The notes under the pieces: model-generated | Database searches by the model: none | The model's input: the letters and a program-made list of their open reading frames with translations, nothing else | What the model was told of the DNA's origin: nothing | Assembly: GCA_052034495.1 (NCBI GenBank) | Contig: JBPOIL010000012.1 | Coordinates: 13,644 to 77,643 of the forward strand | Origin: Patescibacteria group bacterium | GTDB taxonomy: Bacteria > Patescibacteriota > Saccharimonadia > CAILAD01 > JADZBC01 | Length of the DNA: 64,000 nt | Reading direction: 5' to 3' | Program-made: the position numbers and the translations under genes | In this document: positions 17,598 through 38,677 of the stretch, piece by piece | Position numbering within the stretch: the stretch's first letter is position 1 | Layout of the letters: each line of letters starts with the position of its first letter

Positions 17598-18362
17598 ATG
17601 AACTCAGGATTTCTAACATTCGCAGCGAAGGGCAAGGCCTTTCGTTCAGTCGGCACGCATCAGCGCTTTGACCGTGAGGCTTTTCGTTTAGTCTCGCCCT
17701 TCATTAATCACGATAACTTTCCGCGCAGGAAGGACATCCTTTTGTTCGAAGGGGTAGGGGGTCCTGATGGGTTGAAGTTCAAAGGTAACTACGACACAAA
17801 CCATATGTGGGATCCAGTAAACGAGATTGGGTTTTTGCCTACTTGGATCGAGAGTCATTTGGCCAGCATGACGCAGGCTTTGCGCGAAAAGGATATGGTG
17901 GAAGCCAGCTTTCATGCCGGATGGATGGCGCATTATCTGACCGATAGCCTCACGCCCGCCCATCACTTGAGCCACGATCTTATTGCTGCTGAGTACGAGG
18001 AGAAGAGTAAGGCGCGTAAAGGCTGGTTGTACTGGGGCCGCAAGGGACTCATGAGTTCGCACGTTCATTTTGAGGCGGGCATCGCGACGTCCATGGTAAT
18101 GTCGCCAATTCGTGCAGATTTCGATAGGGCGCTATACGAGCGCATTAAAAAGCACGGCCTAGCTCACTGCGTACGGGAGGAATCATATCGTATATCTCAA
18201 CTTGGCCTGTATGATAAGTTTCTGAAAAAGGGCTGGAGCAGCAAGCTTGCTCGCGAAATCAAGCTATCAGTGGTGCCTCGAATTCCGCAGCTAATTGCTG
18301 CCGCCTGGCTGCTCGCCTATGAACAGGCGGATTATTCTCCTAAAGCCCCTAAAGGCAGATAA
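17598..18362 (+). CDS. hypothetical protein, putative zinc-dependent hydrolase of the phospholipase C / S1-P1 nuclease type
   Basis: His/Asp cluster HAGWMAHYLTDSLTPAHH has the H-x3-D-x5-H spacing seen in PLC/P1 nuclease zinc sites. No other recognisable motif. Confidence 0.3.
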   Translation: MNSGFLTFAAKGKAFRSVGTHQRFDREAFRLVSPFINHDNFPRRKDILLFEGVGGPDGLKFKGNYDTNHMWDPVNEIGFLPTWIESHLASMTQALREKDMVEASFHAGWMAHYLTDSLTPAHHLSHDLIAAEYEEKSKARKGWLYWGRKGLMSSHVHFEAGIATSMVMSPIRADFDRALYERIKKHGLAHCVREESYRISQLGLYDKFLKKGWSSKLAREIKLSVVPRIPQLIAAAWLLAYEQADYSPKAPKGR

Positions 18363-18895
18363 TGCTGCAGATAATTTCCGGGGAATATGCACGTAAGACC
18401 CTTGTTCAGCCCCCAAGCTCGCTTACTCGTCCTGTAGGGGAGAAGGTCCGAGGAGCAATATTTAGTAGTCTGGCCGATGAAGTGGTCGGAGCCAAAGTAC
18501 TCGACTTATTCGCTGGTAGCGGCGCATTGGGGCTTGAGGCGTTGAGTCGCGGAGCTGCAAGTGTGGACTTTGTAGAAAAGCACAGCAGGGTGGCGAAGAT
18601 AATTGATGAAAACATTGATAGTCTTGGAATTACAGAAGGAGTGCAGATATTCACTCGTACCGCGGAACAGTTCTTTCGTCATATTGATAGCAGGTACGAC
18701 ATTATCCTAATGGACCCGCCTTACGCAGATTTTACCCAGGGTCTGGTACAGCAGGCAGTAGGTTTGCTACAATACGGTGGCACTTTGGTAGTAAGTACTT
18801 CCAGCAAGAGCAGTGTTGTTGCTCCCGACGGGACCGTAATGGTTCGCCAGAAGGTTTATGGGGATACTATGATTACTGTAATTTTAAAACGGTAA
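18362..18895 (+). CDS. rsmD: 16S rRNA (guanine966-N2)-methyltransferase RsmD
   Basis: DLFAGSGALGLEALSRGA SAM-binding motif and DPPY motif; recG-rsmD neighbourhood. Confidence 0.85.
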   Translation: MLQIISGEYARKTLVQPPSSLTRPVGEKVRGAIFSSLADEVVGAKVLDLFAGSGALGLEALSRGAASVDFVEKHSRVAKIIDENIDSLGITEGVQIFTRTAEQFFRHIDSRYDIILMDPPYADFTQGLVQQAVGLLQYGGTLVVSTSSKSSVVAPDGTVMVRQKVYGDTMITVILKR

Positions 18896-18937
18896 GGTAT
18901 GTAGGCGGAATGGCTGCACAAAGTAGATAGTCAGCAA

Positions 18938-18986
18938 GCGGATGTGGTGGCCGCGTGAAACGTAAGTAGGCGTAGACACGCTAGCC
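18938..18986 (+). pseudogene. partial, degenerate duplicate of the tRNA-Leu 5' half
   Basis: GCGGATGTGGTGG (18938-18950) and AGACACGCTAGCC (18974-18986) are identical to the acceptor/D-stem and D/anticodon-stem segments of the intact tRNA-Leu 90 nt downstream. No anticodon or T arm. Confidence 0.5.
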
Positions 18987-19037
18987 AGGGCCGTCCGGTG
19001 AGACGCTTGGTTGAGAGGTAAGTTTACAATTTAATAT

Positions 19038-19123
19038 GCGGATGTGGTGGAATTGGTAGACACGCTAGCCTTAGGAGCTAGTGAGGTAACACTCGTGAAG
19101 GTTCGAGTCCTTTCATCCGCACC
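19038..19123 (+). tRNA. tRNA-Leu(TAG), type II, CCA encoded
   Basis: Manual fold: acceptor GCGGATG/CATCCGC, D-loop with GG, anticodon stem CTAGC/GCTAG, loop CTTAGGA, long variable arm, T-loop TTCGAGT, discriminator A plus CCA. Confidence 0.85.
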
Positions 19124-19126
19124 AAC

Positions 19127-19159
19127 TAAAAGCGCCCAGTGTCACCTGGGCGCTTTTAG
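19127..19159 (+). terminator. Rho-independent terminator after tRNA-Leu
   Basis: aaaaGCGCCCAGgtgtcaCCTGGGCGCtttt. Confidence 0.75.
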
Positions 19160-19197
19160 TTGGGTAAACTGCCTACGAAATATAGTGTTAAAAAGTA

Positions 19198-19226
19198 TTG
19201 ACATTTTAACGCTTACGTGATATTAT
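19198..19226 (+). promoter_or_regulatory. sigma70-type promoter for the GC-rich small gene
   Basis: Near-consensus TTGACA, 17-nt spacer, TATTAT. Confidence 0.5.
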
Positions 19227-19303
19227 TTATCTAACCTGCGCACAAGGCAAAGGTTACCCCGACAGAGGTTGGGGATGAGTTGAGCCTAGGAGGCCAACCA
19301 GCC

Positions 19304-19636
19304 ATGCAAACCGAAGTGGCAAGAGAAGAGCAGCACCGTCCCCGCCTCGGAAGCAGCTACGACGCTTCCGCGGTCCCCGTGGGGCAGGTGATGCAGGTCA
19401 ACACCCGCAACTCCGCCTACTACTTCGTCTTCACCGATGAGCGGCGCATCAACCGCACCGACATCACCGGGGTCTCCGTGACCACGACGAACAAGGGCAT
19501 CGCGGTGGGTGCGCCCGCCAGCGTGCGGGTCGACCGGGTGATCCGTCGCGGGCAGTCGCTCCGCTTCGGCGCCGGTCGTGGGACCACGACTTCCGACGTC
19601 GTCTCGGTCTACGTGGCGGGTCGCCAGGTCGTCTGA
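19304..19636 (+). CDS. hypothetical small protein (110 aa) encoded in a high-GC island; start taken at ATG 19304 (ORF track begins at TTG 19280)
   Basis: AGGAGG RBS 10 nt upstream of the ATG; own promoter and terminator. GC content visibly far above the genome background; a frame-by-frame GC3 count has not been done. Confidence 0.5.
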   Translation: MQTEVAREEQHRPRLGSSYDASAVPVGQVMQVNTRNSAYYFVFTDERRINRTDITGVSVTTTNKGIAVGAPASVRVDRVIRRGQSLRFGAGRGTTTSDVVSVYVAGRQVV

Positions 19637-19702
19637 CCTGGTCCACCACAACTGCAGTCTTGAATGAGATCCAAGACAACATGCAGAGACCACCTTGATC
19701 TC

Positions 19703-19728
19703 GAGCCCCCACGTTATCGTGGGGGCTC
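19703..19728 (+). terminator. terminator hairpin after the GC-rich small gene
   Basis: GAGCCCCCacgttatcgtGGGGGCTC followed by an AT-rich stretch. Confidence 0.6.
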
Positions 19729-19788
19729 AATTCGTTATATCGCTCTATTACTACCAAATCTGGCTATATTCTGCTAAGATATGAAACT

Positions 19789-21069
19789 ATGATTAAACAC
19801 GAAATTACCTCCACCAAAAACTCTCAAGTTGAGCTAAAAGTTGAACTAACCGCCGACTATCTTGAAGACGTCAAAAAGACAGTTGTGAGTCGCATGAAGT
19901 CAGGCGTAAAAGTAGCCGGTTTTCGACCTGGCAAAGCACCCGATAATATCGTCGAGCGACACCTAGACCAGAGCCAGTTGCAGTCTGAAGTTCTCGAAGC
20001 CGCAGTCGCTCGATCGTATACCGACGCAGTAATTGCTGAAAAGCTCGAGACGATTGCTTCGCCCAAAGTTGAGCTCAAGAAGTTTGTGCCTTACACGGAG
20101 CTGGAGTACACCGCATCAGCTGCTATTATGCCAAAGATCGAGTTCGACCCCGCAAAGCTCAAGGTAAAGCAAGAAGTGGTCAAGGTAGACGCCAAAGAAA
20201 TCGACGAAACTATAGAGGGCTTGCGCAAGCAGATGTCGAGCGAAAAACCGAGCAAAGATCCAGCTAAGGACGGCGACAAGGTCAAGGTCGACTTCGAAGG
20301 TACTCGCGCGGGCAAGCCGGTAGAAGGCGCTGCTGCCCAGAACAGTGAGATTACTCTAGGCGAAGGTCGATTTATCCCGGGGTTTGAAGAAAACATCATC
20401 GGGCTCAAGGAAGGTGATGAGAAGGAATTCGAAGTAACTTTCCCAAAGGATTACCACGCAAAGGACTTAGCCGGTGCCAAGGTGAACTTCAAAGTTAAAC
20501 TAAACGAAGTAAACAGTATTGAACTACCCGTAGTAGATGACGAGTTTGCAAAGGCTATTGGCGACTTTAAGACCGTTACTGAAATGCGTGACGACATAGA
20601 GGCTAAAATTAAGGTCCAAAAGTCTGACCAAGCAGCCCAAGACTATGAACAAAAGGTCATGGCTGAAGTGTTGAAGCAAGTTAAGTTTGAAGTCGCACCA
20701 TTGCTGCTAGACGAACAGAAGCACCGTCTACAACATGAAGTAGAAGAAAACCTCAAACAAAGCGGCCTTGATGTGGACAAATACTTGGCAGTGAGCGGTA
20801 AGGCCAAGGATGAGTTCGAAAAGGAGCTCCATGAAGAGTCTGAAAAGCGTGTTAAGACCGGCTTACTCATTCGTCACGTCGTAGATACAAACAAGCTTGA
20901 AGTTACGAACGACGAGATCGAGACCGAGCTACAAAAGCTCAGGACTCAGTATACCGACAAGCATATGCTCGAAGAGATGACACACGGTCACTTCCGCGAC
21001 GACTTGGCCCAGCATCTGCTCGCTACCAAAGCACGCCAGCTCTTGGTACAATATGCTCTAGGCAAATAG
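19789..21069 (+). CDS. tig: trigger factor
   Basis: N-terminal ribosome-binding domain, central PPIase (FKBP-type), C-terminal arm; 426 aa. Confidence 0.9.
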   Translation: MIKHEITSTKNSQVELKVELTADYLEDVKKTVVSRMKSGVKVAGFRPGKAPDNIVERHLDQSQLQSEVLEAAVARSYTDAVIAEKLETIASPKVELKKFVPYTELEYTASAAIMPKIEFDPAKLKVKQEVVKVDAKEIDETIEGLRKQMSSEKPSKDPAKDGDKVKVDFEGTRAGKPVEGAAAQNSEITLGEGRFIPGFEENIIGLKEGDEKEFEVTFPKDYHAKDLAGAKVNFKVKLNEVNSIELPVVDDEFAKAIGDFKTVTEMRDDIEAKIKVQKSDQAAQDYEQKVMAEVLKQVKFEVAPLLLDEQKHRLQHEVEENLKQSGLDVDKYLAVSGKAKDEFEKELHEESEKRVKTGLLIRHVVDTNKLEVTNDEIETELQKLRTQYTDKHMLEEMTHGHFRDDLAQHLLATKARQLLVQYALGK

Positions 21070-31475: not shown

Positions 31476-31510
31476 CGTATTGAGACGAGAGTATACTGGA
31501 AGAGTTATGA

Positions 31511-31534
31511 GGCCCTAGCGCATGCGCTAGGGCC
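31511..31534. repeat. perfect 24-nt palindrome GGCCCTAGCGCATGCGCTAGGGCC at the edge of the tdk island
   Basis: Read directly from the sequence; candidate terminator for the minus-strand island transcript, or a protein-binding site. Confidence 0.5.
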
Positions 31535-31557
31535 TCGGGTGAGGGTTGGTCTGAACT

Positions 31558-31776
31558 TCAGTCCGAAGGGTCTTCCGGGGGAAGGCGCTTGTCCCAGGGG
31601 ATCTCGCGAGGGCCACCCTGCAGGATGGTCGGAGCTTCTTCTTCTCCTCCTTCGCTGAGCAGGTGCCTTCCCGGAAGAGGGCTCCCGGTCGGCACAGTGG
31701 GCTCCAGCCCCGTGAATCCGGCCTGGAGGCGCGCACGAAGATCGGCGCCATCTCTCATTGCTTGGTCGTCAGCCAT
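31558..31776 (-). CDS. hypothetical acidic, Pro/Gly-rich small protein (72 aa) downstream of tdk in the high-GC island
   Basis: Same strand as tdk with a 77-nt gap; high GC; weak RBS; could be non-coding. Confidence 0.25.
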   Translation of the reverse strand: MADDQAMRDGADLRARLQAGFTGLEPTVPTGSPLPGRHLLSEGGEEEAPTILQGGPREIPWDKRLPPEDPSD

Positions 31777-31853
31777 CCTATTTGGCCTTGCCTTTCTGTT
31801 CGGTGATCAAGCCTTAGCCATATTAAACGAGCTTCCGCCCGAAGACAAGTGCA

Positions 31854-38093: not shown

Positions 38094-38122
38094 TAGACAA
38101 ACAATGCTAGCTGTGTTACTAT
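38094..38122 (+). promoter_or_regulatory. sigma70-type promoter driving the large structured RNA
   Basis: TAGACA, 17-nt spacer, TACTAT, in an AT-rich stretch. Confidence 0.4.
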
Positions 38123-38128
38123 GTGTAT

Positions 38129-38677
38129 CTAAGTTTGGTTTACGCCAAATTGCACCTTATATTTGGACTTCGGTCCATACAATCAGCTCTTGATACATTG
38201 AGCGTTGATTGTATGGACCTGACACCTTAGGTAAAGTCCATTGAATTGAAATCCGATCCATTTGAGGCTACGGCCACAAGAAAGGGTAGTAGCTTGCACG
38301 GAAGAGCGCACGTTTGCTGGTTCGCCAGTGTGACGTCACCGTTTCTCCTAGCACGCTACAATGCCCTGTAGGGTCGGATGATACCGGAAGCAACGGCCCG
38401 AGGGCCACCGCTTCCTGGTGTCGCCAGAGAATTTACGCCACGCGGCTTGCCGTAGGTATTGTTCTCTGAGCTTCGCGCCTTCTGCTTCGGCAGAAGGTCA
38501 TACGCTGAGGGTCCCGCCCCCTCAGTCGCGCAGGGTGGGTTCCGCCACCTGCCCTTGCGCACGACGCGCCCCGGGATCCGCCGCCTGGGACGCGCAGGTC
38601 GGCGGGGTGGCCTCCGGGCCACCCCGCCGCACCCACCACGAGACCTTGAACTTTGTTCAGGGTCTTCTTTCATTTTT
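38129..38677 (+). ncRNA. candidate large structured ncRNA (~550 nt) of unknown class, promoter to intrinsic terminator; its 3' third is extremely GC-rich
   Basis: No credible ORF. Series of perfect hairpins: GGTCCATACAATCA/TGATTGTATGGACC (38172-38219); CCTTCTGC-UUCG-GCAGAAGG tetraloop (38478-38497); CTGAGGG/CCCTCAG (38505-38525); GGCGGGGTGGCC-tccg-GGCCACCCCGCC. Terminator GAGACC...GGTCTTC plus T-run at 38640-38677. Motifs AAAGTCC (38233) after the first hairpin and GGAAGAGCGCAC (38300) are reminiscent of RNase P RNA, but the spacing does not fit. Confidence 0.4.

Follow-up and report, generated by a model that had tools for sequence, protein, structure and literature searches.

Phage 'morons' are reportedly autonomous modules of promoter, open reading frame (ORF) and terminator that lie between conserved genes of lambdoid phages. 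Genes for tRNA and tmRNA are said to be the targets of genomic islands and integrative elements with tyrosine integrases. Flexible genomic islets are replacement hot spots between core genes, which depend on homologous recombination in naturally transformable bacteria. In addition, hairpins in the leader of an mRNA can control translation, as in RNA thermometers, in the autoregulatory operators of ribosomal proteins and in type I toxin leaders such as that of SymE. Here, we discuss a locus that can be compared with all of these. It is a gene cassette between a tRNA-Leu gene and tig, the gene for trigger factor, in a 64-kb stretch of DNA (the window, 49.5% G+C) from a Saccharibacteria (TM7) genome. 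The 80 best relatives of the trigger factor (Tig) come without exception (80/80) from metagenome-assembled genomes (MAGs) of Saccharibacteria or Patescibacteria. Saccharibacteria are obligate epibionts with very small genomes.

The locus contains three separable elements: a functional tRNA-Leu(TAG) gene that has a terminator of its own, an autonomous cassette downstream of it, and a copy of the tRNA-Leu 5' half upstream of it. With a probability of about 0.6 for the reading as a whole, we favor the view that the cassette was acquired horizontally, and that the 5' half is a relic unrelated to it. An earlier note on the same DNA had described the elements correctly, but took the 5' half for a scar of the integration of the cassette. 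Coordinates refer to the window and are collected in Table 1. The labels L001 to L101 stand for compared loci or contigs of relatives.

The cassette and the protein it encodes

The spacer between the tRNA-Leu gene and tig carries an autonomous, monocistronic cassette of roughly 600 bp. Promoter and terminator calls are consensus scans of the sequence. By these scans, a near-consensus promoter, an AGGAGG Shine-Dalgarno (SD) sequence, a very GC-rich ORF for 110 amino acids and a dedicated terminator follow each other ahead of tig, just as the earlier note had read them. The cassette can be aligned with that of L002, with about 91% identity in the leader, about 88% in the 3' untranslated region (UTR) and 80% in the coding sequence (proportion of synonymous differences, pS, 0.28), and the similarity ends directly after the cassette terminator. 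The 3' UTR starts with TCCACCACAACTGCA (19642-19656), which is complementary at 13 of 15 positions to the 5' end of tRNA-Leu (19037-19051), and hence also to the upstream fragment. This complementarity is weaker in L002, lies within the range of chance inverted repeats, and is probably a coincidence.

The same plan is found in those members of the family that have known flanks (L004, L006, L083, L088/L089, L094-L099), and in all of them a TTGACA-17-TAnnAT promoter precedes the ORF. We call the cassette of the window type 1 and the more distant variant in L004, L006 and L088 type 2. In the family, the leader ends in a hairpin, AUUGGn-(SD)-nCCAAUG, which has the SD sequence in its loop and the AUG in its stem. 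On the 3' side, the stop codon is followed by a GC-rich hairpin (with a UUCG tetraloop in most type-2 members and in L098), and then by the terminator. In the window, the third leader hairpin is predicted to half-bury the SD sequence, and a predicted fourth hairpin takes in the AUG. For eight type-2 leaders, 99% of the cells in the two hairpins are paired, versus at most 56% with slid partners, and every substitution preserves pairing. It is a reasonable inference from these folds that the leader may gate translation by partly sequestering the SD sequence and the start codon. A metagenome scan with the type-2 leader found no match.

By sequence comparison, the ORF can be taken to encode a genuine protein of a rare, unnamed family. 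A word-seeded search of 5.8 billion proteins retrieved just one twin (99%) and one relative (74%), and a profile search of 5.8 billion proteins retrieved nine proteins. An exhaustive HMMER search of 1.84 billion cluster representatives yielded 88 clusters at E<=1e-3, 25 of them at E<=1e-10, and nearly all of these are unnamed, rare, single-domain proteins of 95-140 amino acids. L004 and L006 carry distantly homologous ORFs at this site (31-33% identity between the window and L004, BLASTP E 8e-15). In the comparison of the window with L002, the lowest ratio of nonsynonymous to synonymous substitution (dN/dS) among the six frames is that of the sense frame (0.54), and in other family pairs the ratio is 0.17-0.44, which indicates that the family evolves under purifying selection. 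A 135-aa ORF on the antisense strand, open in both the window and L002, was rejected as a real gene on account of its dN/dS of 1.48.

The product is predicted to be small, cytoplasmic and all-beta. Its AlphaFold2 model consists of eight beta strands and a disordered N-terminal stretch of 12-17 residues, and the confidence of the model (predicted local distance difference test, pLDDT) rose from 81 with nine sequences to 92.1 with 56 sequences. Comparison of the model with folds in the PDB gave no significant match, and sequence searches of Pfam, NCBIfam, PHROGs, PADLOC and the PDB with the 110-aa protein gave nothing meaningful. A match of the ORF to ribose-5-phosphate isomerase (E 5e-4, 46 residues) was judged spurious. 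The family has no relatives in IMG/VR, INPHARED, PLSDB or PHROGs, and no named actinobacterial homolog was among the matches of the profile and HMMER searches, which are unnamed metagenomic or Saccharibacteria proteins. A phage, plasmid or actinobacterial origin was therefore rejected. Neither the window nor 80 other tig loci hold a second copy. Judging from the members on assigned MAGs, the family is so far confined to Saccharibacteria-type genomes. As a tentative guess, the protein might act in a conflict or in host interaction, as fast-evolving accessory genes in hot spots usually do.

Composition, variability and origin of the cassette

The base composition of the ORF is at odds with its surroundings. 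Its G+C content is 0.67 overall and 0.64/0.51/0.86 at the three codon positions, whereas the 67 crude gene calls of the window have a third-position value (GC3) of 0.512 on average (standard deviation 0.056, maximum 0.648). The GC3 of the cassette thus exceeds that of host genes by about 6-8 standard deviations in the window (z +7.8), and by even more in L004 (+17) and L083 (+15.5); in L083, a cassette with GC3 0.77 resides in a host with GC3 of only 0.33. The composition is close to native in two family members, L099 (0.48 vs 0.39 in the host) and L101 (0.78 vs 0.71). Translational selection was dismissed as the source of the GC-richness: genes for ribosomal proteins, EF-Tu and EF-G in the window have a GC3 of just 0.41-0.53, and the anomaly is therefore not the codon bias of high expression. 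RNA structure in the coding sequence was also dismissed, since the coding sequence is not unusually structured (z = -0.57). The untranslated parts of the unit are not GC-rich. The earlier note had allowed for an ORF with no homologs and no elevated GC3; homologs exist and the GC3 is far out of the host range.

The spacer itself is highly variable. Seven genomes with 74-91% identical Tig proteins present five different states between tRNA-Leu and tig. L003, the closest available relative, has no cassette in a gap of 89 bp, and the tig leader (about 19758-19788 in the window) is also present in this empty site. The window has the type-1 cassette in a gap of 664 bp, and L004 and L006 have type 2 in gaps of 651-659 bp, as does L088 in its own spacer. 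In L005, the gap measures 970 bp and contains an unrelated GC-rich 218-aa ORF, with a 3' UTR and terminator as in type 2. L007 has a gap of 539 bp with an unrelated 114-aa, Cys-containing ORF of normal G+C content. The ORF of L005 (L005:5031-6000) is an orphan with 3 database relatives, and its promoter, leader and ORF are unlike those of type 2; that of L007 (L007:5462-6000) begins right behind the tRNA. In this clade, unrelated cassettes replace each other in the tRNA-Leu/tig spacer, and the common 3' 'chassis' with different ORFs in L005 and in type 2 suggests modular recombination.

Cassette and host do not agree in their relationships. The window and L004 share 85% identity in Tig, and only 33% in the cassette protein. 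The family is also not tied to this site, but occurs as a monocistronic unit of promoter, leader, ORF and terminator in at least six genomic contexts. In L083-L087, the unit and the tmRNA gene are convergent, and in L083 the unit lies about 60-140 nt from the tmRNA 3' end. Other copies are found next to a PIF1-like helicase gene (L097), between rnc and rpsP (L099, a Saccharibacteria MAG), and between der and a pseudouridine synthase gene (L101), and the members in L097-L101 have no tRNA gene nearby. Cassette junctions recur in independent assemblies (L001; L004/L091/L092/L093; L088-L090). In L001, the order of fragment, tRNA, cassette and tig is the same as in the window, with 2 single-nucleotide differences, and the arrangement is therefore not an assembly chimera.

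The foreign GC3, the absence from L003, the presence of other cassettes at the same site and the varied contexts together make horizontal acquisition the best reading, and the simplest account is that Saccharibacteria exchange entire cassettes horizontally, with lineages of higher G+C content as the source. The copy in the window would then most likely have come from another, higher-G+C Saccharibacteria lineage. Probable routes would be DNA uptake followed by homologous recombination in the tRNA and tig flanks, or illegitimate recombination; a site-specific integration of the cassette appears unlikely. Synonymous sites of tig are saturated between all compared genomes (pS 0.74-0.86). Even between the window and its closest relatives among L003-L007 and L088 (Tig 90% identical), pS is 0.80. 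The divergences covered by comparisons of presence and absence are therefore deep, and the insertion cannot be dated from them. For the cassettes, pS is 0.28-0.60. Of the small, expressed, horizontally acquired gene that the earlier note proposed, acquisition holds as the best reading, and the gene is real, has its own signals and is probably expressed.

Table 1. Features of the tRNA-Leu/tig locus, in window coordinates
Feature	Position	Strand	Basis or remark
rsmD-like methyltransferase, conserved left flank	18362..18895	+	Pfam PF03602, E 1e-41; gene order same in L091
tRNA-Leu 5'-half relic, GCGTGAAACGTAA-type, 49 nt	18938..18986	+	
tRNA-Leu, type II, anticodon TAG, intact	19038..19124	+	ARAGORN; Rfam RF00005 60.2 bits, E 4e-12
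tRNA terminator, 18-nt perfect inverted repeat (19122-19139/19146-19163)	19122..19170	+	T-run inside and after 3' arm
Cassette insert, boundaries approximate	19164..19757	+	Aligned to L003, where ~17 nt replaces it
Cassette promoter, TTGACA-17 nt-(TG)TATTAT	19198..19226	+	Consensus scan, 11/12 matches, TG extension
Predicted 5' leader, three hairpins (19233-19255, 19257-19274, 19276-19300)	19233..19303	+	Fold z = -2.7
SD sequence AGGAGG	19288-19293	+	10 nt ahead of ATG
110-aa ORF, stop codon included, uncharacterised all-beta (predicted) protein family	19304..19636	+	
3'-UTR hairpin, long, imperfect	19639..19692	+	z = -4.5 for whole 3' UTR; about 88% identity with L002
Cassette terminator, 11-bp GC-rich stem (19703-19728) and T-rich tail	19703..19738	+	
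tig (trigger factor), conserved right flank	19789..21069	+	Pfam Trigger_N/FKBP_C/Trigger_C

The flanks of the cassette are conserved. The tRNA-Leu(TAG) gene, which ends one base further downstream than in the earlier note (19123), is 99-100% identical in L003-L007. Its terminator overlaps the CCA end of the tRNA, and is kept in L003-L006 and L088. Pfam identifies rsmD and tig as neighbours, and gives a weak PLC-like match for a further neighbour of 254 aa. An Rfam scan of the locus matched the tRNA and no other known RNA family.

In more distant relatives (L008-L017), whose Tig is about 47% identical, tRNA-Leu and tig are 1-3.4 kb apart. The interval contains ORFs of 434 and 158 amino acids, which, judged by eye from their sequences, we take to be murA and a greA-like gene, and ORF-poor stretches of 0.5-0.9 kb with raised G+C content. 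ARAGORN makes odd calls in these loci, namely tRNA-??? with 2-nt anticodons, tRNA-Asp(atc) and tRNA-Gly(acc), beside a tRNA-Phe(gaa). Such calls could reflect tRNA-like elements, or else a structured RNA of another kind.

The tRNA-Leu 5'-half fragment and the rival explanations

The fragment upstream of the tRNA-Leu gene consists of two blocks that are exact copies of tRNA segments, as the earlier note had found. Block 1, GCGGATGTGGTGG (13 nt, 18938-18950), equals 19038-19050, and comprises the 5' strands of the acceptor stem and the D-stem. Block 2, GTAGACACGCTAGCC, which is 15 nt long (18972-18986) rather than 13 as first described, equals 19056-19070, and comprises the 3' part of the D-loop, the 3' strand of the D-stem and the 5' strand of the anticodon stem. 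The blocks correspond to tRNA positions 1-13 and about 19-33, in the order of the tRNA, and are separated by a 21-nt insert, CCGCGTGAAACGTAAGTAGGC (18951-18971), where the D-loop of the tRNA has AATTG. By chance, 0.06 matches of the 13-nt block and 0.00 matches of the 15-nt block would be expected in the window. The similarity ends at the anticodon loop, and over the next 51 nt the match to the 3' half of the tRNA is no better than in shuffled controls (p about 0.38). No tRNA is called in 18938-19037 by ARAGORN or by Rfam (E<=1), and a complete cloverleaf is lacking there. Since the 3' half of the tRNA has no counterpart here, a decayed full-length pseudogene was rejected. The region shows no significant structure (z = -0.95).

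Among the relatives, the fragment occurs only in L006, which has two tandem copies, the older one decayed, and each copy follows the native upstream flank known from L007. The window and L006 are identical over 34 nt that include the non-tRNA insert, despite the saturation of synonymous sites in tig. The fragment is absent from L003, L004, L005, L007 and L088-L091, and no copies were found in viral or JGI (Joint Genome Institute) metagenome contigs. It lies upstream and the cassette downstream of the intact tRNA, and therefore it does not bound the insert. Moreover, a cassette without the fragment is found in L004, L005, L007 and L088-L091, both occur in L006, and neither in L003. The fragment is unrelated to the cassette and independent of it. 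Its conservation argues for either a recent spread on a mobile sequence or a function.

A similar design was seen in a distant Saccharibacteria lineage (L040, Tig only 37% identical). At the end of this contig (L040:1-180, minus strand), there are two tandem tRNA-Leu-like 5' halves with a spacing of 114 nt, of the form GCGGATGTGGTGG-CTGCGTGAAACGTAAATATGA-GTAGACACGTCTACC, and CCATGAATGACACTAAACTTCG stands ahead of each copy. The D-loop insert CTGCGTGAAACGTAAATATGA is of the same kind as in the window. No tRNA was called in the 5-kb contig.

Oral Saccharibacteria present a different arrangement (L050:298-1833, and also L053, L079 and L080). An intact tRNA-Leu(TAG) gene, a 123-aa ORF and a 193-aa ORF with a Phage_integrase catalytic domain (Pfam E 8e-29) adjoin an inverted, 43-nt fragment of the tRNA-Leu(TAG) 5' half, and sister genomes (L078 and others) have an intact tRNA-Leu gene at the place of the fragment. 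The locus resembles an integrative element, now degenerate, that interrupted one tRNA-Leu gene and brought in another. The integrase-like sequence is present in those four loci only. That tRNA-Leu(TAG) can serve as an integration target, in line with the general assumption of the earlier note about tRNA genes, is thus borne out in oral Saccharibacteria. In view of this pairing of an integrase with a tRNA-Leu 5' relic, the fragment in the window may also be a scar, of a different event than the arrival of the cassette. Most likely, it would be left over from a separate event at tRNA-Leu, of the integrase or mobile-element type.

How do other explanations compare? A site-specific integration of the cassette into tRNA-Leu, with the upstream copy as the scar of that event, would account for the position of the cassette next to a tRNA gene, or a tmRNA gene in L083, and for a partial tRNA copy nearby, and the integrase remnant beside a 5' relic in oral Saccharibacteria lends it some color. 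It is nevertheless very unlikely. The intact tRNA separates fragment from cassette, the two assort independently among relatives, no repeat bounds 19164-19757, family members in L097-L101 do without a nearby tRNA, and a tblastn search with one query, the Phage_integrase ORF of L050, found no integrase-like sequence in the window or in L001-L007. The fragment could instead be functional, as part of the leader of pre-tRNA-Leu, as a small RNA that mimics the 5' half and pairs with the 3' half of the tRNA, or as the end of a mobile element. The 34 nt shared with L006, of which 21 are the insert, and the same design with CTGCGTGAAACGTAAATATGA, twice in tandem in L040, speak for this possibility, and co-transcription with the tRNA may occur, as by eye there is no convincing promoter between the two. 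Its absence from eight of the loci named above (L003, L004, L005, L007, L088-L091), the unremarkable folding of the region, the lack of an Rfam match and the lack of copies in viral or JGI metagenome contigs make a function doubtful.

For the cassette, the main competitor is vertical descent. An old, fast-evolving Saccharibacteria gene might have resided in the spacer before the lineages split, and might have been lost in L003 and replaced in L005 and L007, with its high GC3 kept by selection (for instance on codon choice or the stability of the mRNA) or by GC-biased gene conversion in the hot spot. Most relatives do have some cassette here, and type 2 is found in both Tig sub-clades. GC3 is high across copies of 25-65% protein identity, although amelioration would erase it unless it was maintained, and L099 and L101 are near-native in composition. 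The tail of the cassette terminator resembles that of the tRNA terminator, so that the state of L003 could be a deletion. We still consider this history unlikely. Types 1 and 2, at 33% identity, occupy hosts with 85% identical Tig, the same type-2 unit sits beside tmRNA in a genome with a host GC3 of 0.33, and for several pairs the pS of the cassettes (0.28-0.55) is below that of the hosts (at least 0.74). The ordinary structure of the coding sequence also speaks against it, and UTRs of the same unit that are not GC-rich count against local gene conversion. That the GC-rich stretch is non-coding (a spurious ORF or an RNA gene), or a chimera of assembly or binning, is hardly credible. GC-rich DNA opens long ORFs on both strands, as the antisense ORF in the window and L002 illustrates, and many family members come from very short contigs. 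However, the sense frame has the lowest dN/dS, the family is kept at 21-30% identity without frame disruption, the model reaches a pLDDT of 92, and the junctions recur in the independent assemblies listed above.

Horizontal acquisition of the cassette beside an unrelated relic is therefore the reading that we retain, and several points weigh against it. A GC3 near 0.85 puts the plateau of saturation at about 0.6, and several cassette pairs are perhaps saturated; only the lower cassette pS values (0.28-0.45) clearly mean younger common ancestry. Strong codon constraint could mimic a recent transfer. No donor lineage was identified, and neither a target duplication nor inverted repeats nor an attachment (att) site bounds 19164-19757. 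The compared hosts diverged anciently, and the 'empty' L003 could equally be a loss. No homology or fold match backs any function for the 110-aa protein. Most family members are on short, unassigned contigs, and the restriction to Saccharibacteria rests on the assigned MAGs only. Covariation in the leader is weak, with too little variation and 184 of 500 shuffles equally good. Finally, a neutral relic would not be expected to keep 34 nt identical across saturated lineages.

Other observations and comparison with known systems

Two further regions of the window deserve mention. On the plus strand, 38094-38670 has a promoter-like TAGACA-17-TACTAT with TG (38094-38122) and a terminator (38640-38666), which predict a transcript of roughly 543 nt without ORFs, with 65-68% G+C in its 3' two-thirds. 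It folds far better than shuffled sequence (minimum free energy -277 vs -196 +/- 6.6 kcal/mol, z = -12.35), and Rfam returned no match even with a cutoff of E<=10. GGUAAAGUCC and GGAAGAGCGCAC were spotted in it by eye, and might recall conserved regions of RNase P RNA. The region is a candidate for a large structured RNA, which could be novel or a divergent rnpB. Between the rpsG terminator and tdk, there is a third G+C-rich island (31500-31800, minus strand, 0.61-0.63), with a 72-aa ORF (31558-31776, MADDQAMRDGADLRARLQ...) that is followed by a hairpin, AGGCCCTAGCGCATGCGCTAGGGCCT (31511-31536). No promoter-like site and no Pfam, PHROG or PADLOC match were found for this island.

The cassette is not the sole GC-rich unit of these genomes, which contain further cassettes and islands of this kind. 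A bolder view, which we regard as rather improbable, would assign it to a class of mobile 'expression modules' specific to Saccharibacteria, with coding parts kept strongly G+C-rich whatever the host, and with a new small beta fold in the present case; separately, the tRNA-Leu 5' half would be a functional tRNA mimic, or the arm site of undescribed integrative elements. If this were true, the modules would imply an unrecognised force, such as a product or transcript that acts in or against the high-G+C actinobacterial host, or, alternatively, a flux from an unsampled donor pool of high G+C content. If the high coding G+C reflected selection and not history, it would suggest a new constraint on the genes of epibionts on high-G+C hosts. 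On any view, the genomes of these epibionts are very small, and their few exchanged accessory genes are therefore prime candidates for host interaction or defence. The locus yields an uncharacterised family of small proteins, a confidently modelled fold and a conserved, putative translational leader. For genetic work on transformable Saccharibacteria, the tRNA-Leu/tig hot spot might offer a neutral place for insertions. The locus is also a clear case in which the inference from a tRNA fragment to the scar of an adjacent island fails.

The comparison with tRNA-targeted islands is instructive. As in such islands, the insert starts next to a tRNA gene, after its terminator and about 40 nt past the 3' end of tRNA-Leu (or near tmRNA in L083), and a partial tRNA copy that breaks off at the anticodon loop is nearby. 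However, the insert has only about 600 bp, no integrase was found with the one tblastn query, and no direct repeat bounds it. Where an island would have a 3' piece at its far end, the relic here is a 5' half that precedes the gene, and relic and cassette assort independently. Integron cassettes are also mobile units of a single ORF with a structured 3' end, but the present cassette has a strong predicted promoter of its own, and there is no intI, attI or cassette array. By eye, 19637-19745 contains no attC core sites (RYYYAAC/GTTRRRY).

With respect to expression, the cassette resembles systems of leader-hairpin control in that, across the family, a hairpin is predicted whose loop contains or adjoins the SD sequence and whose stem contains or adjoins the AUG. 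It differs from them in that no ligand, temperature or antisense partner has been identified for the leader. Type I toxin-antitoxin systems, with a hydrophobic toxin of fewer than 60 residues and an antisense RNA, are further removed. The product has 110 residues, is predicted to be soluble and all-beta, and has no hydrophobic segment, and a scan for antisense promoters found a sole site (19250-19222), which is weak (9/12) and points away from the ORF.

The closest parallels are those to morons and flexible islets. Like a moron, the cassette is a single ORF with its own promoter and terminator and with a base composition unlike its surroundings, is inserted between two genes that are adjacent in L003, and is dispensable and variable. 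In contrast to morons, its flanks are housekeeping genes and not phage genes, it has no PHROG match and no copy in IMG/VR or INPHARED, and the unit recurs in chromosomal intergenic sites of Saccharibacteria with a conserved structured leader. As in flexible islets, the conserved tRNA-Leu and tig flanks enclose alternative, non-homologous contents, the empty state included. Here, however, each allele is one complete transcription unit, and unrelated ORFs (L005 vs L004/L006) share a 3' UTR and terminator 'chassis'. The cassette is an autonomous accessory-gene unit of an uncharacterised family at a tRNA-adjacent hot spot, and is moron-like or flexible-islet-like in its architecture.

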